Positions 4,522 to 50,049 of a stretch of DNA of 52,523 nucleotides are shown here, piece by piece. The first letter of the stretch is position 1; each line of letters starts with the position of its first letter. Origin of the DNA: a virus (lineage: Duplodnaviria; Heunggongvirae; Uroviricota; Caudoviricetes); the IMG/VR virus record IMGVR_UViG_2537561965_000009. The stretch is one strand, 5' to 3'. The notes below the pieces were generated by a model that was given only the letters and a program-made list of their open reading frames with translations, ran no database searches and was not told the DNA's origin. The position numbers were made by a program, and so were the translations under genes.

Positions 4522-4579
4522 AATTCACTTTAAAAAGGGCGGCAGAGCAGTCACGGAGTAAAACTGATACCGCCAAACG
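4522..4579 (-). ncRNA. dicF: DicF small regulatory RNA
   Basis: Minus-strand sequence UUUCUGGUGACGUUUGGCGGUAUCAGUUUUACUCCGUGACUGCUCUGCCGCCC followed by a U-run matches the DicF sRNA as I recall it; located between ydfC-like and dicB-like genes as in Qin. Confidence 0.6.
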
Positions 4580-4927
4580 TCACCAGAAAATTGATAACAG
4601 AGGGCGTTGCAGCGGAGTTGTCACTTAAGCGTATGGTCAACCTGACAACCCGGTGTCCTCAACGGAGGAAGGAATAACCCCGCCATACTTACCGCCGCGC
4701 CATTTCGCGGAGTGCCACAACCGGAAGCGCACGGTCGAACTAAATTTAACGACACCGTACAGAGAGACCAATTTCGCCGTGCGCTTTCGCTTTATGCCCT
4801 GACTTTTCAGGGACATATCCTTTCAGTAAACTGTCAGTGCCGGATGTTCACCCGTGTCCGGCGCACGCACTCCACCTGACCCGTGGAGAACTCCTTAATT
4901 ACCAACCTTAGCTTCGTTGGTTAGCTA

Positions 4928-5688: not shown

Positions 5689-6366
5689 ATGTCCATCATT
5701 TTTAATGGACACTATCGTATGAAACACCGGACCTGGATCACTGAAGCTTTACGTCTTCACTTTGAAGAACATTTACCCCGGGTTGTGGCCGGGCGTCGCC
5801 TGGGTGTACCAAAATCAACAGTTTGTAGTATGTTCGTGCGCTTTCGGAGAGCTGGCCTTTCGTGGCCTTTGCCCGCAGGCATGTCGGAGCAGGAACTTGA
5901 TGCCTGCCTTTACGGACAATTTTCCACGGTACCAGTCGTACGTCCTGAAAGCACCGTTATATCCGAAGCCCCCGTGGTAAAAAAACGTCCCCGGCGGCCC
6001 AACTTCCCTTATGAGTTTAAAATCGCCTTAGTGGAGCAGTCACTGCAGCCCGGAGCCTGTGTGGCGCAGATCGCCCGGGAAAACGGAATCAACGATAACC
6101 TGCTCTTCAACTGGCGCCATCAATACCGGAAAGGTGGCCTGCTGCCTTCCGGAAAAAATATGCCGGCACTGCTTCCCGTGACGTTAACGCCGGAGCCGGA
6201 TAATAAAATCCCGGCCCCCGCACAGGAACCAGAGCAGATAAATACACCGTCCGACAGTCTGTGTTGTGAGCTGGTTCTGCCGGCCGGAACTCTCAGGCTT
6301 AAAGGTAAACTGACGCCGGCGTTATTACAGACACTTATCCGCGAAATAAAAGGGAGCAGCCACTGA
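5689..6366 (+). CDS. IS66-family accessory protein TnpA (HTH)
   Basis: 225-aa ORF with IS3/IS66 orfA-like HTH segment FKIALVEQSLQPGACVAQIARENGINDNLLFNWRHQYRKGG; stop overlaps start of tnpB. Confidence 0.7.
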   Translation: MSIIFNGHYRMKHRTWITEALRLHFEEHLPRVVAGRRLGVPKSTVCSMFVRFRRAGLSWPLPAGMSEQELDACLYGQFSTVPVVRPESTVISEAPVVKKRPRRPNFPYEFKIALVEQSLQPGACVAQIARENGINDNLLFNWRHQYRKGGLLPSGKNMPALLPVTLTPEPDNKIPAPAQEPEQINTPSDSLCCELVLPAGTLRLKGKLTPALLQTLIREIKGSSH

Positions 6367-6713
6367 TGATATCTCTCCCTGCAGGTTCGCGTATCTGGCT
6401 GGTTGCAGGTATCACCGATATGCGAAATGGCTTTAACGGCCTGGCATCAAAAGTTCAGAACGTCCTGAAGGATGACCCGTTCTCCGGACACCTGTTCATC
6501 TTCCGCGGACGCCGGGGTGACCAGATAAAAGTGTTGTGGGCTGACAGTGACGGACTGTGCCTCTTCACCAAACGCCTGGAGCGGGGCCGCTTCGTCTGGC
6601 CAGTCACCCGTGACGGCAAGGTGCACCTTACTCCGGCTCAGTTATCCATGCTTCTTGAAGGTATCAACTGGAAGCACCCGAAACGAACGGAACGCGCTGG
6701 AATCCGCATATAA
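6366..6713 (+). CDS. IS66-family TnpB
   Basis: 115-aa ORF MISLPAGSRIWLVAGITDMRNGFNGL... characteristic of IS66 orfB. Confidence 0.8.
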   Translation: MISLPAGSRIWLVAGITDMRNGFNGLASKVQNVLKDDPFSGHLFIFRGRRGDQIKVLWADSDGLCLFTKRLERGRFVWPVTRDGKVHLTPAQLSMLLEGINWKHPKRTERAGIRI

Positions 6714-6732
6714 CCCGTTGTAAAGTGAGGAT

Positions 6733-8304
6733 ATGGACACCTCACTTGCTCATGAGAACGCCCGCCTGCGGGCACTGTTGCAGACGCAACAGGACACCAT
6801 CCGCCAGATGGCCGAATATAACCGCCTGCTCTCACTGCGGGTGGCGGCTTATGCTTCCGAAATCAACCGGCTGAAGGCGCTGGTTGCGAAACTGCAACGT
6901 ATGCAGTTCGGTAAAAGCTCAGAAAAACTTCGTGCAAAAACCGAACGGCAGATACAGGAAGCACAGGAGCGAATCAGCGCACTTCAGGAAGAAATGGCGG
7001 AAACGCTGGGTGAGCAATATGACCCGGTACTGCCATCCGCCCTGCGCCAGTCTTCAGCCCGTAAACCGTTACCGGCCTCACTTCCCCGTGAAACCCGGGT
7101 TATCCGGCCGGAAGAGGAATGCTGTCCTGCCTGTGGTGGTGAACTCAGTTCTCTGGGATGTGATGTGTCAGAGCAACTGGAGCTTATCAGCAGCGCCTTT
7201 AAGGTTATCGAAACACAACGTCCGAAACAGGCCTGTTGCCGGTGCGACCATATCGTGCAGGCACCAGTACCTTCAAAACCCATTGCACGCAGTTATGCCG
7301 GAGCGGGGCTTCTGGCCCATGTTGTCACCGGGAAATATGCAGACCATCTGCCGTTATACCGCCAGTCAGAAATATACCGTCGTCAGGGAGTGGAGCTGAG
7401 CCGTGCCACACTGGGGCGCTGGACAGGTGCTGTTGCTGAACTGCTGGAGCCGCTGTATGACGTCCTGCGCCAGTATGTGCTGATGCCCGGTAAAGTCCAT
7501 GCTGATGATATCCCCGTCCCGGTCCAGGAGCCGGGCAGCGGTAAAACCCGGACAGCCCGGCTGTGGGTCTACGTCCGTGATGACCGTAACGCCGGTTCAC
7601 AGATGCCCCCGGCGGTCTGGTTCGCGTACAGTCCGGACCGGAAAGGTATCCATCCACAAAATCACCTGGCCGGTTACAGCGGTGTGCTTCAGGCCGATGC
7701 TTACGGTGGTTACCGGGCGTTATACGAATCCGGCAGAATAACGGAAGCCGCGTGTATGGCTCATGCCCGGAGAAAAATCCACGATGTGCATGCAAGAGCG
7801 CCCACCTACATCACCACGGAAGCCCTGCAGCGTATCGGTGAACTGTATGCCATCGAGGCAGAGGTCCGGGGCTGTTCAGCAGAACAGCGTCTGGCGGCAA
7901 GAAAAGCCAGAGCCGCGCCACTGATGCAGTCACTGTATGACTGGATACAGCAACAGATGAAAACACTGTCGCGTCACTCAGATACGGCAAAAGCGTTCGC
8001 ATACCTGCTGAAACAGTGGGATGCACTGAACGTGTACTGCAGTAATGGCTGGGTGGAAATCGACAACAACATCGCAGAGAACGCCTTACGGGGAGTGGCC
8101 GTAGGCCGGAAAAACTGGATGTTCGCGGGTTCCGACAGCGGTGGTGAACATGCGGCGGTGTTGTACTCGCTGATCGGCACATGCCGTCTGAACAATGTGG
8201 AGCCAGAAAAGTGGCTGCGTTACGTCATTGAACATATCCAGGACTGGCCGGCAAACCGGGTACGCGATCTGTTGCCCTGGAAAGTTGATCTGAGCTCTCA
8301 GTAA
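6733..8304 (+). CDS. IS66-family transposase TnpC
   Basis: 523-aa ORF with N-terminal coiled-coil and Cys-rich CPACG...CCRC region typical of IS66 transposases. Confidence 0.85.
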
Positions 8305-8395: not shown

Positions 8396-8486
8396 TTTGG
8401 GCGCGACCTAATAGGTGATGGTTTGTGGGAGAGGTAGTAGGAGTTAACTAACGGGAACTAGGAATTTCCCGTCGGACCATATAAGT

Positions 8487-8963
8487 TTAAGTTCCTGTCT
8501 TGGTGATGTTCTGGCTTTTCCGTTTTGATTCTTGATTTTTCAGATAGTTAGCTACCTTCATTTCCATTGCGGCAATGTAGGCGCGAACGTCATGATCAAC
8601 CCAACTAGGCTCCGTAGCATTTCCAGATAAGAGGAAAGCCACAATTGCTCTTTTTTCATCAGAGGCGGCTTGATAAAGGCTGTTTATGTCTAAAAGTTCA
8701 CTTTTTGTATCTGAAGTGGATGGGGTTGGTATGGGGTATTCGTTAAGCCCCCAATGCTCTGGACCAACCACATCAGAAAAGAAACGCCATAGTTCTGGAA
8801 GTTTGTCTTTACTTATCGAACCTTTCTTAATCCAGTCATGGATTGATGGTGGTTGGACTTTGAAATGACGTGCGATTTCCGCCTTTGATTTGACGGCTCC
8901 TGATGCAATTTTTTTGTTAATGGCCTGCTCAATCGCTCGGCCTAAGTCTTTACCACTAAGCAT
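8487..8963 (-). CDS. prophage repressor, short HTH protein without LexA-like peptidase domain (RacR-like)
   Basis: 158-aa ORF with N-terminal HTH-like segment (AEIARHFKVQPPSIHDWIKKG); AGGAG SD; divergent from a cro-like gene and flanked by two operator sets. Confidence 0.65.
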   Translation of the reverse strand: MLSGKDLGRAIEQAINKKIASGAVKSKAEIARHFKVQPPSIHDWIKKGSISKDKLPELWRFFSDVVGPEHWGLNEYPIPTPSTSDTKSELLDINSLYQAASDEKRAIVAFLLSGNATEPSWVDHDVRAYIAAMEMKVANYLKNQESKRKSQNITKTGT

Positions 8964-9015
8964 TGCTTAATAGTCTCCTATGCGCATCGCGTTAGGCAAT
9001 CCCTACTCTCGATGT

Positions 9016-9060
9016 ATTAGGCATAGCCTATTGACAATTGCATTAGGCTAAGCCTAATAT
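9016..9060 (+). promoter_or_regulatory. OR-like operators with rightward promoter (PR-like)
   Basis: Palindromes ATTAGGCATAGCCTAT and the perfect 17-bp ATTAGGCTAAGCCTAAT; TTGACA at 9031-9036 and TAATAT at 9055-9060 (18-bp spacer) upstream of the cro-like gene. Confidence 0.55.
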
Positions 9061-9087
9061 TGTTGCGTGTTTTTTGGAGTTCATTCG

Positions 9088-9411
9088 ATGAAAAAAGATA
9101 ACTATTCATTCAAACGAGCTTGTGCTGTTGTCGGTGGGCAATCAGCAATGGCTAGGCTTTTAGGTGTATCTCCTCCAAGCGTAAATCAATGGATCAAAGG
9201 TGTACGTCAGTTGCCTGCTGAGAGATGTCCTGCGATTGAACGAGCAACAAAAGGTGGTGTCCTGTGTGAAGAACTTCGTCCTGATGTTGATTGGACATAC
9301 TTACGACGCTCGTCATGTTATTCGCAGAATATGTCGATGAAGCAACCAAATGACGAAAACGATCATACCCGAAGCATCAAGAGGCAAATGATTCATGAAA
9401 ATCAAACATGA
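9088..9411 (+). CDS. ydaS: Cro-like HTH regulator (YdaS-like)
   Basis: 107 aa from ATG 9088 with GGAG SD; MKKDNYSFKRACAVVGGQSAMARLLGVSPPSVNQWIKGVRQLPAERCPAIE recognised as YdaS-like. Confidence 0.65.
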   Translation: MKKDNYSFKRACAVVGGQSAMARLLGVSPPSVNQWIKGVRQLPAERCPAIERATKGGVLCEELRPDVDWTYLRRSSCYSQNMSMKQPNDENDHTRSIKRQMIHENQT

Positions 9412-9820
9412 GCACATCCGCATGGCGATGAATGCTTGGGCATACCCTGATGGTGAGAAAGTTCCTGCAGCTGAAATAGCCCGGACTTATTTCGAACTGG
9501 GGATGACGTTCCCTGAACTGTACGACGACAGCCATCCGGAAGCCCTGGCCCGTAATACACAGAAAATTTTCCGTTGGCTGGATAAAGACACCCCTGATGC
9601 TGTTGAAAAAATTCAGGCTCTGTTACCGGCGATCGAAAAGGCAATGCCGCCTCTGCTGGTGGCCCGTATGCGCAGTCACAGCTCTGAGTATTACCGGGAG
9701 ATTGTCGAACGGCGGGATCGGCTGGTGAAGGATGTCGACGATTTTGTTGCGTCAGCGGTTGTTTTGTATGACCAGATGAATCGCGGCGGCCCGGCAGGGA
9801 ATGCTGTGGTGATGCACTAA
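9395..9820 (+). CDS. ydaT: YdaT-like protein
   Basis: 141-aa ORF overlapping the end of the ydaS-like gene; size and position match ydaT of Rac-type immunity regions. Confidence 0.5.
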   Translation: MKIKHEHIRMAMNAWAYPDGEKVPAAEIARTYFELGMTFPELYDDSHPEALARNTQKIFRWLDKDTPDAVEKIQALLPAIEKAMPPLLVARMRSHSSEYYREIVERRDRLVKDVDDFVASAVVLYDQMNRGGPAGNAVVMH

Positions 9821-9842
9821 AAGCACGGTGTTCGGGGGTTTT

Positions 9843-10805
9843 ATGAGCAGCAAGCTTCATGGTCTTGTCTGGGAAGGGTGCGCCTTCACCGGCATGATCT
9901 TATCCAGGGTGGCGGTTATGGCCCGTCTTGCAGACTACAGCAATGACGAGGGCGTGTCATGGCCTGCCATTGAAACTATCCGGCGTCAGATCGGTGCAAG
10001 AAGTGAATCCACAGTGAAATCGGCTATTGCAGAACTGGCGAAAGAGGGCTGGCTGACGAAGGAAGAGCGTAAGGTCGGTGGGCGTAATGTAAGCAATATC
10101 TATCGACTTAATGTGGAAAAACTCGAAGCAGCTGCGGCGGCGGCGCGTGAGTCATATAAACCGAAAAGAAAAATTAGCCCGGCAAAAAATGACCCGTTAA
10201 CAGTTGACCCGTCAAATATTGACCCCTCAACGGTTGACCCGTCAAATTTTGATGGATCAACTGTTGATAAAAAACTGCCGATTAGGGGGGCGATGATTGA
10301 CCCCGATCCGTCAGTATTAAAACCTGATCCGTCAGATAAAAGATCTTCTTGTCCGGACGCTTCGCAACCGGACCCGCAGACGGCTGAACAGGATTTTTTA
10401 ACCCGACACCCTGACGCGGTTGTGTTCAGTGCGAAAAAACGCCAGTGGGGAAGTCAGGAAGATTTGGTGTGCGCACAGTGGATCTGGGGACGAATCGTGA
10501 GTCTTTACGAGCAGGCGGCCAGCTATGATGGCGAGATCACTAGACCGAAAGAACCCAACTGGACAGCATGGGCCAATGACGTTCGCACAATGCGGATGCT
10601 GGATGGCAGAACTCACAGACAAATTTGTGAAATGTTTGGGCGTCTCCAGCGGGATTCGTTCTGGGTAAAAAACATCATGAGTCCGGCAAAACTCCGGGAA
10701 AAATGGGATGAACTGGTTATCCGCCTGGGGCGTTCGCCTGCGCAGCGTTGCGTGAATCACATTTCTGAACCGGACACTGAAATTCCGCCGGGCTTCAGGG
10801 GGTAA
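9843..10805 (+). CDS. replication initiation protein (O-like; gene contains the iterons)
   Basis: 320 aa from ATG 9843 (GGGGG SD); N-terminal winged-helix-like region; central repetitive DP(S/L)TVD peptide encoded by the iteron array; downstream of the immunity region as expected for replication genes. Confidence 0.55.
   Translation: MSSKLHGLVWEGCAFTGMILSRVAVMARLADYSNDEGVSWPAIETIRRQIGARSESTVKSAIAELAKEGWLTKEERKVGGRNVSNIYRLNVEKLEAAAAAARESYKPKRKISPAKNDPLTVDPSNIDPSTVDPSNFDGSTVDKKLPIRGAMIDPDPSVLKPDPSDKRSSCPDASQPDPQTAEQDFLTRHPDAVVFSAKKRQWGSQEDLVCAQWIWGRIVSLYEQAASYDGEITRPKEPNWTAWANDVRTMRMLDGRTHRQICEMFGRLQRDSFWVKNIMSPAKLREKWDELVIRLGRSPAQRCVNHISEPDTEIPPGFRG
10189..10330. repeat. iteron array, candidate origin of replication inside the replication gene
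   Basis: About six copies of a roughly 15-bp unit with core TGACCCGTCAA (for example TTGACCCGTCAAATAT, TTGACCCCTCAACGG, TTGACCCGTCAAATTT) followed by A-rich sequence; analogous to ori-lambda inside gene O. Confidence 0.5.
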
Positions 10806-10845
10806 GTGTTAATTTCTGGTCATGAGGTAATTTTCAGGAGGGCTT

Positions 10846-11268
10846 GTGGCAAAAGTTTTTACACAAGAAGAGCGGGAAAAAATTAAAGGGCAGGTTGTTG
10901 AACTCGTACGCCAGAGTGGGCGCGAGACGTTACGACAACTGGAAACTAAAACTGGGGCAACAAGATATCTGATGAGCGTTCTGGCCAGAGAGCTGGTTGC
11001 CAGCGGCGATGTATACAACTCCGGCTACGGGTTATTCCCCTCTGAACAGGCGCGTAAGGACTGGCAAAACGCCCGCAAAAAACTCTCGAGGGCAAAGGTG
11101 AAGAAACCTGCTGTGGTTGATCCGGACCTTATCTGGTCATCACCTGACGGAGAAATACGTCGCTACGACAGTCGCCTAAACATAATCTGTCGCGAGTGCC
11201 GGAAGAGTGAAGCTATGCAGCGTGTACTGGCTTTCTATCAGGGTAATTTTCAGGAGGCGGTACTGTGA
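10846..11268 (+). CDS. hypothetical phage protein
   Basis: 140-aa ORF, GTG start with AGGAGGG SD; no family recognised. Confidence 0.45.
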   Translation: MAKVFTQEEREKIKGQVVELVRQSGRETLRQLETKTGATRYLMSVLARELVASGDVYNSGYGLFPSEQARKDWQNARKKLSRAKVKKPAVVDPDLIWSSPDGEIRRYDSRLNIICRECRKSEAMQRVLAFYQGNFQEAVL

Positions 11269-11325
11269 GTGAAATTAGCTATCAGGCTTCAATTACCGCT
11301 GGCATTCGCATCAAAGGAGAGGAGC

Positions 11326-11682
11326 ATGGAAATAAAACCAGAGGATGAGTTAAGCAATATCGTTTTATTTCCGGTAAAAGAGGATGACCCTCGTAATCAG
11401 GTTAATTTTCTTTATGAGCCATCGGAAAGACCATATTGTCATCACGCCTCTGTCCGGGTTGACGAAAAAGAGCGTCAGGTCCGCTGTAAAATCTGCGGTG
11501 CAGTTGTGGAGCCATTTGACTGGATGCTCTCTGTGGCGAAAAGAGAAACCAGACTGGCAGATGATGTAAGGCTCTTGCGTCAAGAGGAGCGGGAAAGGCG
11601 AAAAAATATAGAAAAGCTAATTCAGATTGAGCGTAACGCGAAAGCGCGGATACGCAGGGCGACAAAATCCAGAACTGAATAA
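11326..11682 (+). CDS. hypothetical protein with CxHH...CKIC metal-binding-like motif
   Basis: 118 aa from ATG 11326 preceded by AAGGAGAGGAG; the ORF-track N-terminal extension is an alternative-start artefact. Confidence 0.5.
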   Translation: MEIKPEDELSNIVLFPVKEDDPRNQVNFLYEPSERPYCHHASVRVDEKERQVRCKICGAVVEPFDWMLSVAKRETRLADDVRLLRQEERERRKNIEKLIQIERNAKARIRRATKSRTE

Positions 11683-12790: not shown

Positions 12791-12935
12791 ATACAGCGAA
12801 CGCCATTGGTTTAGTTGGATATTTACTGTGCCGGACAAAAACGGTTTGCGGGGAAATCTTAGTTAAGTAGAATGACTGCGGGTGCTTGAGGCTATCTGTC
12901 TCAGGCATGAACACCAAAAGGCAGATAGAGAAAAG

Positions 12936-13000
12936 CCCCAGTTAACATTACGCGTCCTGCAAGACGCTTAACATTAATCTGAGGCCATATCTATGCTCTA
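12936..13000 (-). ncRNA. sok: candidate Sok antisense RNA
   Basis: Minus-strand promoter-like TTGCCT (rc of 13031-13036) and TAACCT (rc of 13007-13012) with 17-bp spacer, positioned like the sok promoter of hok/sok loci; extent is an estimate. Confidence 0.35.
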
Positions 13001-13205
13001 CACACGTAGGTTAGCCTCTTACGTGCCGAAAGGCAAGGAGAAGCAGGCTATGAAGCAGCAAAAGGCGATGCTAATCGCCCTGATCGTCATCTGTTTAACC
13101 GTCATAGTGACGGCACTGGTAACGAGGAAAGACCTCTGCGAGGTACGAATCCGAACCGGCCAGACGGAGGTCGCTGTCTTCACAGCTTACGAACCTGAGG
13201 AGTAA
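12993..13205 (+). CDS. mok: mok-like leader reading frame of the hok locus
   Basis: ORF starting upstream of hok and running to the same stop (here in frame with hok); the 5' leader matches the conserved hok mRNA pattern GCTTGAGGC...AGCCTCTTAC...AAGGAGAAG. Confidence 0.4.
   Translation: MLYTRRLASYVPKGKEKQAMKQQKAMLIALIVICLTVIVTALVTRKDLCEVRIRTGQTEVAVFTAYEPEE
13050..13205 (+). CDS. hok: Hok/Gef-family type I toxin
   Basis: 51-aa product MKQQKAMLIALIVICLTVIVTALVTRKDLCEVRIRTGQTEVAVFTAYEPEE has the Hok signature; AGGAG SD at 13036-13040. Confidence 0.85.
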   Translation: MKQQKAMLIALIVICLTVIVTALVTRKDLCEVRIRTGQTEVAVFTAYEPEE

Positions 13206-19166: not shown

Positions 19167-19242
19167 GGCCCTTTAGCTCAGTGGTGAGAGCGAGCGACTC
19201 ATAATCGCCAGGTCGCTGGTTCAAATCCAGCAAGGGCCACCA
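19167..19242 (+). tRNA. ileZ: tRNA with CAU anticodon, ileX-like (tRNA-Ile2)
   Basis: 76-nt cloverleaf GGCCCTT...AAGGGCCACCA with anticodon loop CUCAUAA; closely resembles E. coli ileX as recalled; same position as ileZ in Stx-type phages. Confidence 0.8.
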
Positions 19243-19249
19243 TCACATA

Positions 19250-19326
19250 CCGCCATTAGCTCATCAGGAAAGAGCGCCAGCCTTCGAAGCTGGTTGCGCG
19301 GGGTTCAAGTCCCCGATGGCGGTCCA
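19250..19326 (+). tRNA. argN: tRNA-Arg (anticodon UCG)
   Basis: 77-nt cloverleaf with acceptor CCGCCAT/ATGGCGG, anticodon loop CUUCGAA, T-arm CGGGGTTCAAGTCCCCG and encoded CCA. Confidence 0.75.
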
Positions 19327-19339
19327 TTATCTGCATCAT

Positions 19340-19416
19340 GCGTTGTTAGCTCAGCCGGACAGAGCAATTGCCTTCTAAGCAATCGGTCACTGGTTCGAAT
19401 CCAGTACAACGCGCCA
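19340..19416 (+). tRNA. argO: tRNA-Arg (anticodon UCU)
   Basis: 77-nt cloverleaf GCGTTGT...ACAACGCGCCA with anticodon loop CUUCUAA. Confidence 0.8.
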
Positions 19417-19707
19417 CACTTATTTTCCCTGGCTCGCTTTTGTGGGCCTTTTTTTTAAATGTCTCACAATTTAGGCGGTTGACTGTTGTCTGGTTTGCGG
19501 GGAGTTTGTTAAAAGAAACTGGCATGGTGAATCCCCCTGTGCGGAGGGGCAATCAGCGAGTAGGTATATGGGATAATCGCGGATTCAGGTGCTGGTACTG
19601 AATTCACCGGGAGGCACCCGGCACCATGCAATGGCACATAGCGCCACTCTCCAGCCCCTCTCCGGAGGGGCTGTTTATATTGATTTTGTCAGATGTGAGT
19701 AAACTGC

Positions 19708-49468: not shown

Positions 49469-50049
49469 TGGCATTCAGAATGAGTGAACAACCACGGACC
49501 ATAAAAATTTATAATCTGCTGTCCGGAACTAATGAATTTATTGGTGAAGGTGATGCATATATTCCGCCTCATACAGGTCTGCCAGCAAACAGTACCGACA
49601 TTGCACCGCCAGATATTCCAGCTGGCTTCGTGGCTGTTTTCAACAGTGATGAGTCATCGTGGCATCTCGTTGAAGATCATCGGGGTAAAACGGTTTATGA
49701 CGTGGCTTCCGGCGACGCGTTATTTATTTCTGAACTCGGCTCATTACCGGAAAATGTCACCTGGTTATCCCCGGAAGGGGAGTTTCAGAAGTGGAACGGC
49801 ACAGCCTGGGTGAAAGATGCAGAAGCAGAAAAACTATTCCGGATCCGGGAGGCGGAAGAAACAAAAAACAGCCTGATGCAGGCAGCGAATGAGCATATTG
49901 CGCCACTTCAGGATGCTGTAGATCTGGAGATCGCAACGGAGGAAGAAACTTCGTTGCTGGAAGTCTGGAAAAAGTATCGGGTGTTGCTGAACCGTGTTAA
50001 TACAACAACTGCTCCGGATATTGAATGGCCAGTAGCACCTATAGGGTAA
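49468..50049 (+). CDS. tfa: tail fibre assembly protein Tfa
   Basis: 193-aa ORF, ATG overlapping the stf stop. Confidence 0.85.

Follow-up and report, generated by a model that had tools for sequence, protein, structure and literature searches.

Where does replication begin in the prophage carried by the viral record IMGVR_UViG_2537561965_000009, a 52.5-kb stretch of DNA (hereafter the window) that represents a lambdoid, Rac-like prophage of E. coli? The initial annotation drew attention to an array of repeats inside the gene of a putative replication initiator (positions 9843-10805) and likened it to ori-lambda inside gene O. This analogy is supported in all its parts that can be tested from sequence, namely the O-like gene, the place of the array, the palindromic repeats and selection at the DNA level. 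The repeats are conserved as DNA rather than as protein, and the region 10189-10350, in the central part of the initiator gene that codes for the linker, is therefore very probably the replication origin of this Rac-like lambdoid prophage.

The array contains five 12-bp palindromes TTGACnnGTCAA (TTGAC nn GTCAA) with an exact spacing of 15 bp (five codons) between positions 10189 and 10260; the palindromic nature of the units was not remarked in the initial annotation. Iteron 1, ATGACCCGTTAA (10189-10200), has two mismatches to the 12-bp palindrome TTGACCCGTCAA, which forms iterons 2 (10204-10215) and 4 (10234-10245), with TTGACCCCTCAA as iteron 3 (10219-10230). Iteron 5, TTGATGGATCAA (10249-10260), keeps its half-sites around an inverted centre, and its minus strand reads TGATCCATCAA. 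A degenerate sixth unit, TTGATAAAAAAC (10264-10275), retains the left half-site only and runs into an A-rich patch. Two distal sites follow. Distal site 1, TTGACCCCGATCCGTCAG (10297-10314, containing GATCCGTCAG at 10305-10314), falls where the synonymous sites of the gene are most conserved, and distal site 2, TGATCCGTCAG (10325-10335), starts 21 nt after distal site 1 and is conserved in the phages PhiR49_1, Eeyore and phiP27. The array as such is real, but the earlier count of six or more direct repeats was slightly generous, as there are four good direct copies, one copy with an inverted centre, one half-site and the two distal sites. The spacing, given as about 15 bp, is exactly 15 nt for the units in 10189-10275. 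Tandem Repeats Finder reported both a period of 15 (five copies) and a period of 30 (2.5-3 copies, score up to 101) in 10169-10267. The array is in frame within the open reading frame (ORF) 9843-10805, as had been noted, so that the 15-bp spacing of the iterons produces a five-residue peptide repeat (NDPLT VDPSN IDPST VDPSN FDGST VDKK).

Several further properties of the array were recorded. The single strand of 10180-10345 can fold back on itself around a point near 10232, into a long, imperfect hairpin of -26.2 kcal/mol (z = -3.9 relative to shuffled sequences), and this hairpin and cruciform potential arises because the units are palindromic and alternately oriented. Four GATC (Dam) sites are found within the 90 nt of 10255-10345, whereas the window as a whole has 2.46 per kb. 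The sequence GAT-CC gives each of the two distal sites a GATC, while the array units are mostly GAC-CC. The number of iterons varies among E. coli relatives with about 90% identity, which carry 5, 4, 3 or 2 units and encode proteins of 320, 315, 310 or 305 amino acids (aa), the differences corresponding to whole 5-aa (15-nt) units. Iteron number reportedly also differs between relatives among the O/ori variants of Shiga toxin (Stx) phages.

Are these repeats a property of the DNA or of the encoded peptide? Window-wide counts (an 11-mer with two mismatches and a 12-mer with one mismatch) revealed no enrichment over shuffles, and since these whole-window counts were not significant, synonymous resampling was used instead. 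In 20,000 synonymous resamplings of the initiator protein, five or more TGAnnnnTCA sites occurred with a probability of 5e-5, and a 15-nt-phased chain of four such sites was never obtained. In the 52.5 kb of the window there are 23 TGAnnnnTCA sites, five of which fall within the 130 nt of 10205-10334, and no second cluster of this motif was found anywhere in the window.

The homologous genes show the same pattern. The homologue set comprised 80 loci, with one genome per species across Enterobacterales, and aligned to the N-terminal 180 aa of the initiator with 41-74% identity; codon statistics were calculated over 78 homologous genes, and the codon alignment compared 77 homologues with the window gene. 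About 75 homologues have three to eight TGAnnnnTCA motifs with exact 15-nt phasing in the same linker, including genes from Erwinia, Edwardsiella, Morganella, Proteus, Providencia, Yersinia, Pantoea and other genera. In the homologous units the T-GA and TCA flanks are fixed and the four central bases vary (CCCG, CGCA, CACG, GGGG and others), which makes the middle residue of the peptide unit variable (P, A, T, G, R or V). TCA encodes the serine of the [DE]xS units in 414 of 478 cases (87%), compared with 15% for the other serines of the same genes, and at the wobble position ahead of GA the base T is found in 66% of the units and in 23% of the positions elsewhere. Wobble positions are among the most informative and conserved positions of the repeat unit. 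In five loci (L006, L009, L010, L011 and L021) the motif is written as TGACCCCTCA or as its reverse complement TGAGGGGTCA, and three of them (L006, L009 and L021) have both within one array. When the orientation is flipped in this way, the DNA site is kept and the peptide switches from D-P-S to E-G-S.

Synonymous conservation across the gene points in the same direction. Third-position identity to the 77 homologues was 0.58 inside 10188-10370 and 0.34 outside (Mann-Whitney P = 1e-5), whereas amino acid identity was no higher inside (0.40) than outside (0.43). Where the amino acid was the same, the same codon was used with a frequency of 0.77 inside this region compared to 0.45 outside (P = 2e-7), with a peak of 0.97 at 10293-10322, around the distal sites. 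The highest synonymous conservation lies over aa 109-179, which are predicted to be disordered, so the part of the gene that is most conserved as DNA encodes the least structured part of the protein. Together with the resampling and the flipped orientations, these results indicate that selection acts on the repeats as DNA and that they do not simply follow from the protein sequence.

Module exchange between related prophages links the repeats to the N-terminal domain of the initiator. Two loci from Qin/dicA-type E. coli prophages, L166 and L167, are 87-92% identical to the window at the nucleotide level in the 3' half of the gene from about 10336 on, and have the same DUF977 neighbour. Their N-terminal domain is unrelated to that of the window initiator and has no Pfam match. 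At the equivalent place they contain five repeats at 23-nt spacing (L166:2832-2961; L167:2830-2961) with the core CATCrGGTCAAAATG, followed by three copies of ACAGAGAATACA. As 23 nt is not a multiple of three, these repeats cannot be a peptide repeat, and they presumably represent a second, undescribed iteron set and origin. In P0070, the N-terminal domain and repeats of the window type are joined to another C-terminal domain, and the O protein of Gifsy-2 combines a lambda-type N-terminal domain with lambda-type iterons ATCCCCGAAAACGGGGAT at 22-nt spacing. These swaps indicate that the N-terminal domain and its repeat set form one specificity module. The mosaic junction maps to 10336-10356, directly after distal site 2, where L166 and L167 become alignable and P0070 diverges. 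As judged from these alignments, an N-domain/repeat module with a junction right after distal site 2 is the classic lambdoid pattern.

All 320 aa of the initiator are covered by a match to phrog_391 (replication initiation O-like, E 2e-115), and tblastn searches with the protein returned many annotated O genes. Its N-terminal winged-helix domain (aa 1-105; 9843-10157, plus strand) contains a Pfam HTH_36 match at aa 25-71 (E 2e-6) together with a sub-threshold DnaD_N match, and the Pfam scan returned no lambda-O N-domain family. The C-terminal domain (aa 182-300; 10386-10742, plus strand) is homologous to that of lambda O. BLASTP aligned it with lambda O aa 171-277 (39% identity over 119 aa, E 5e-26), and this is the only part of the protein that aligns with lambda O. 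The PHROG families "replisome organizer" and "DnaD-like helicase loader" also match the C-terminal domain. An AlphaFold2 model built on 16 homologues shows a winged helix-turn-helix N-domain of helices and strands (aa 1-105, predicted local distance difference test score (pLDDT) 66-89), predicted disorder over the residues encoded by the repeat-bearing DNA (aa 109-179, pLDDT below 50), and a C-domain of helices at aa 181-299 (pLDDT 70-87). A Foldseek search of the Protein Data Bank (PDB) with this model found generic winged helices of the MarR/Fur/PerR type only (E at least 8e-3), with no specific initiator relative and no match to the C-domain. The N-terminal winged-helix domain is presumed to be the iteron reader.

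The initiator is widespread. A query with it matched 3,265 of 5,426 complete E. coli genomes; in 1,514 genomes the match covered at least 80% of the gene, and 996 complete E. coli genome records had a match with at least 99% identity. The same module is present in the isolated phages PhiR49_1, SfII, SfIV, phiNP and Eeyore, with a homologue also in phiP27; SfII, SfIV, phiNP and phiP27 are temperate. Public sources label this protein and 914 related clusters only as "helix-turn-helix domain-containing protein".

An origin inside the initiator gene is textbook knowledge for lambdoid phages, and the similarity to ori-lambda extends to the architecture. The comparison was made with the annotated lambda record, which lists four iterons followed by A/T-rich DNA. 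Both systems have an iteron array in the linker-coding middle of the initiator gene, iterons that are each a palindrome, and A/T-rich DNA, only modestly so here, on the C-domain side. The lambda iterons occupy nt 349-433 of O with the C-domain starting at aa 171, while the array studied here occupies nt 347-420 of its gene (nt 493 with the distal sites) with the C-domain starting at aa 182. A recombination junction lies just past the origin in both cases, 39-47 nt after iteron 4 in lambda (misc_recomb marks) and at about 10336 here. There are also differences. The iterons are 12 bp long with 15-bp in-frame spacing, compared to 18-bp iterons at 20-24 bp in lambda; the N-domain belongs to HTH_36 and not to a lambda-O N-domain family; the A/T-rich block is much weaker; and there are two extra distal GATC-containing sites. 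The prophage also has no P gene, and its initiator ends in a DnaT-like tail, in contrast to the ...TDWIYGVDL end of lambda O. It therefore differs from a lambda O/P module in the strict sense in the N-domain family and in the downstream P-type loader.

The DNA on either side of the array is moderately A/T-rich. Patches of 30-40 nt with 65-77% A+T are found at 10148-10177, 10244-10273 and 10311-10350, and their duplex instability ranks at about the 91st-95th percentile of the window. The earlier description of the array as followed by A-rich DNA is only modestly true, since the two patches concerned (10244-10273 and 10311-10350) have 68-77% A+T, and a strong A/T-rich unwinding element was rejected in favour of modest patches. 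The patch at 10311-10350 (68% A+T, about the 95th percentile of instability) lies between and after the distal sites, contains two of the four clustered GATC sites and is a candidate unwinding region. The homologues also retain the short runs of A at the distal sites. The adjoining stretch 10336-10420 (ATAAAAGATCTTCTTGTCCGGACGCTTCGCAACCGGACCCGCAG...GATTTTTTAACC) is nearly identical in the PhiR49_1 gene, whose protein is otherwise about 57% identical, and also in L166 with its unrelated N-domain; it may mark a recombination junction or else be a functional DNA element of the origin that these genes share. Two sites resembling DnaA boxes, each with a single mismatch, flank the array at 10112-10120 and 10262-10270 (minus), TTTTCCACA and TTATCAACA. 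Neither is conserved in PhiR49_1, and DnaA boxes were not counted as part of the origin.

A working model for this origin can be proposed by analogy with lambda. Upon derepression, the rightward early operon would be transcribed and the 320-aa initiator made, and transcription from the promoter-like site at 9031-9060 would pass through the origin, as it does in lambda. Dimers of the winged-helix N-domain would bind the 12-bp palindromes at 10189-10260, and the two distal GATCCGTCAG sites (10305-10335) would probably be bound too, giving an O-some-like nucleoprotein complex. With a spacing of 15 bp, adjacent dimers would sit on approximately opposite sides of the DNA helix, an arrangement in which the 30-bp super-period would fit pairs of sites. 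The complex may then destabilise the adjoining A/T-rich, GATC-containing DNA at about 10311-10350, and the lambda-O-like C-domain together with the DnaT-like tail would recruit the helicase-loading machinery of the host. In this model, initiator binding, unwinding, helicase recruitment and origin firing are inferred.

Several observations weigh against an active origin at this place. With an instability at only about the 91st-95th percentile for the window, the A/T-rich element is weak, and the A/T-rich block that follows the iterons of ori-lambda is much clearer. Because of their common ancestry, and because repeat units are duplicated from one another, the homologues provide fewer independent observations than the codon statistics suggest. 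An element of the IS66 family is inserted about 180 bp from racR, and this copy of the prophage may be defective. The prophage also encodes no helicase loader, and a survey published in 2025 describes the replication of O-only lambdoid modules, found in 34 of 314 surveyed phages, as "not yet understood" (PMC12315714).

If the origin lay elsewhere in the prophage, the repeats could be initiator-binding sites that serve control alone, by autoregulation, by titration or handcuffing, or in incompatibility and exclusion. The weak A/T-rich element beside the array and the lack of conservation of the nearby DnaA-box-like sites would fit such a role, and iteron plasmids use their initiator-binding sites for copy control and incompatibility as well. 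We regard a purely regulatory function as improbable, because there is no second cluster of the motif in the window, the position of the array relative to the homologous C-domain matches that of ori-lambda, and a block of very high synonymous conservation (10293-10370) adjoins the array, as expected for a region of unwinding or loading.

There is a similarly small chance that the array is a relic, that is, the origin of an ancestral phage which no longer fires in a cryptic prophage. Rac-like prophages are often defective, and the IS66-family element beside the immunity region and the missing helicase loader gene would agree with decay. Against this, the initiator ORF is intact, the numbers of E. 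coli genomes that carry the gene at high identity or coverage are those given above, and isolated phages (PhiR49_1, SfII, SfIV, phiNP and Eeyore) have the same module. O-only modules, moreover, include that of phage LLS, which grows lytically (PMC12315714). Relic status is possible for this particular copy, but it would not change what the element is.

The weakest alternative, in which the repeats are only a flexible peptide linker of DPSxV units and the DNA repeat is a functionless by-product of slippage or duplication, agrees with the predicted disorder of the region, with the whole-unit copy variation among relatives that slippage would give and with the common occurrence of low-complexity D/P/S-rich linkers, but it is very improbable and essentially excluded by the codon, orientation and 23-nt-spacing evidence, since resampling never reproduced the DNA pattern, TCA serines predominate in the units across many genera (87% compared with 15% elsewhere), the wobble positions are among the most conserved of the unit, the reversed motif is kept with EGS in place of DPS, synonymous-site identity peaks at the array where amino acid identity does not, and the repeats of the sister family (L166/L167) cannot encode a peptide repeat.

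If 10189-10350 is the origin, how is the helicase brought to it? No match to lambda P, DnaC or DnaB was found within 3 kb downstream of the initiator, and none is annotated in the identical prophage of E. coli strain ST648. By its gene content, the locus is a member of the O-only lambdoid replication modules. The initiator ends in a 21-aa tail, ...AQRCVNHISEPDTEIPPGFRG (10740-10802, plus strand), which matches the last 21 residues of E. coli DnaT (PDB 2ru8, 6aep and 9zbt with E 0.01-0.03; NCBIfam DnaT positions 159-179 of 179; overall E about 0.004-0.03). The alignment, VNHISEPDTEIPPGFRG with DnaT VNTVSEPDSQIPPGFRG, is short, and the matching segment is terminal in both proteins. The likeness to DnaT is limited to these residues, the rest of the initiator being unrelated.

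The DnaT-like tail behaves as a separate unit. Exchange of the N-domain or of the C-domain leaves it in place, and it occurs on initiators with several N-domain types in phages of Escherichia, Salmonella, Klebsiella and Shigella. In the HTH_36 set, none of the 21 genes with the strict ...GFRG end has a downstream loader, and none of the 14 genes with a loader ends in ...GFRG; where the neighbour is lambda P, the HTH_36 genes have W..G..L tails like that of lambda O. Genes with a third type of tail (...W..IWK...) likewise have no loader downstream. Gifsy-2 and POCJ13 break the simple rule that a phage with the DnaT-like tail has no loader, since a DnaC-like gene comes after their tail-bearing initiators, and the rule was narrowed to the statement that in the set examined the tail never occurs with lambda P. 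The combination of the tail with a DnaC-like neighbour echoes the dnaT-dnaC operon of the host.

It is possible that the tail is a docking peptide for a host replication partner. The literature on DnaT (a 2026 preprimosome paper and a 2014 review) contains no residue-level statement about the last 20 residues or their binding partner, and for this reason recruitment of the host loading machinery by the tail is a lead and not a result. We tentatively suggest, as a minority possibility, that the initiator constitutes a self-sufficient O-only origin module in which a copy of the DnaT tail replaces the lambda-P step. In such a module the tail could dock the origin-bound initiator on the partner of the DnaT tail, which could be DnaB-DnaC, a DnaC-type loader or possibly PriA.

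The gene order around the origin is that of a lambdoid early region. The initiator gene (9843-10805, plus strand; assigned from the ORF list, RefSeq and phrog_391) has a 100% identical copy in E. coli ST648 (NZ_CP008697), in a prophage inserted beside ompW, where RefSeq annotates the identical coding sequence. It is preceded by a racR-like repressor gene on the minus strand (8487-8963), a ydaS/cro-like gene (9067-9411) and a ydaT/cII-like gene (9395-9820), all three assigned from the ORF list, Pfam and PHROG. Between the racR-like gene and the cro/cII-like/initiator operon lies a promoter-like site, TTGACA-18-TAATAT (9031-9060, plus strand), the sole sigma-70-like match within 8400-11400 and the presumed equivalent of pR, which would drive the rightward early operon toward the origin. 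Directly 3' of the initiator, where lambda has P and then ren, is a DUF977 gene (10846-11268, plus strand; Pfam E 2.7e-28). It also matches phrog_142, "Ren-like exclusion protein" (E 7e-48), so that the order reads O-ren with the P slot empty.

The IS66-family element occupies 5689-8304 and comprises a 523-aa DDE_Tnp_IS66 transposase (6733-8304) and an HTH_Tnp_1 ORF (5689-6366). The element stops about 180 nt short of the 3' end of the racR-like gene and is absent at that place in the ST648 prophage. In the window, Rfam matches at gathering score include DicF small RNA (sRNA), sok antitoxin RNA (adjoining a hok-like ORF), three tRNAs, STnc100 sRNA and IS009 RNA, with match coordinates of 4537-4588 (minus), 12880-13055, 19167-19413, 19493-19682 and 49811-50009 (all plus); no Rfam RNA family was found within 9000-11300. 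The oriJ of Rac was considered as the same module and rejected. The initiator of the K-12 Rac prophage is different (YdaU, DUF1376) and is followed by the DnaC-like YdaV, so the Rac origin is not the same module.

Origins inside O-analogue genes are also found in P22 (gene 18) and phi80 (gene 15). Among the lambdoid O-analogue origins compared here (Gifsy-2 O and L166/L167), each N-domain type has its own in-gene repeat set, and the repeat sequence, length and spacing described above are specific to the HTH_36 family. In Gram-positive phages, replisome organisers bind repeats in their own gene (SPP1 G38P/oriL and lactococcal phages), but those systems have distant hosts, other DNA-binding domains and other repeats. 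The iteron origins of plasmids (pSC101, R6K, RK2, F and P1) share with this locus tandem repeats next to an unwinding region (here a candidate region), a winged-helix reader (here presumed) and a variable copy number of the repeat unit. Plasmid iterons, in contrast, are about 17-22 bp long at intervals of about two helical turns, usually direct and non-palindromic, and located outside the rep gene. The locus is thus distinct from a plasmid-type iteron origin, having 12-bp palindromes within the gene and no convincing examples of the DnaA boxes that are typical of plasmid origins.

The searchable literature, a scope that leaves out older subscription papers on lambdoid origins, contained no description of this origin or of HTH_36 (PF13730) in connection with iterons. 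A paper on the Eru replication regions of Stx phages makes no mention of iterons or origins (PMC8044961), and the literature on replisome-organiser origins contained nothing on the HTH_36 initiator family. What is new here is the HTH_36 family of initiators, the 12-bp palindromes with in-frame 15-bp spacing that encode a five-residue repeat in a disordered linker, the conserved distal GATC pair, and the O-only context with a DnaT-like tail.

A named origin with its motif provides a handle for the annotation of these widespread prophages, and helps to predict the compatibility or incompatibility of replication modules in co-resident prophages and to design minimal replicons. The locus is also a case of dual coding, in which an array of presumed protein-binding sites in the DNA dictates the sequence of a disordered linker. 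O-only modules are an acknowledged gap (PMC12315714), which could be approached by experiment through this locus and its DnaT-like tail. If the tentative proposal of a self-sufficient module is true, the prophage loads the host helicase without a loader gene of its own, which would explain how O-only lambdoid phages replicate.

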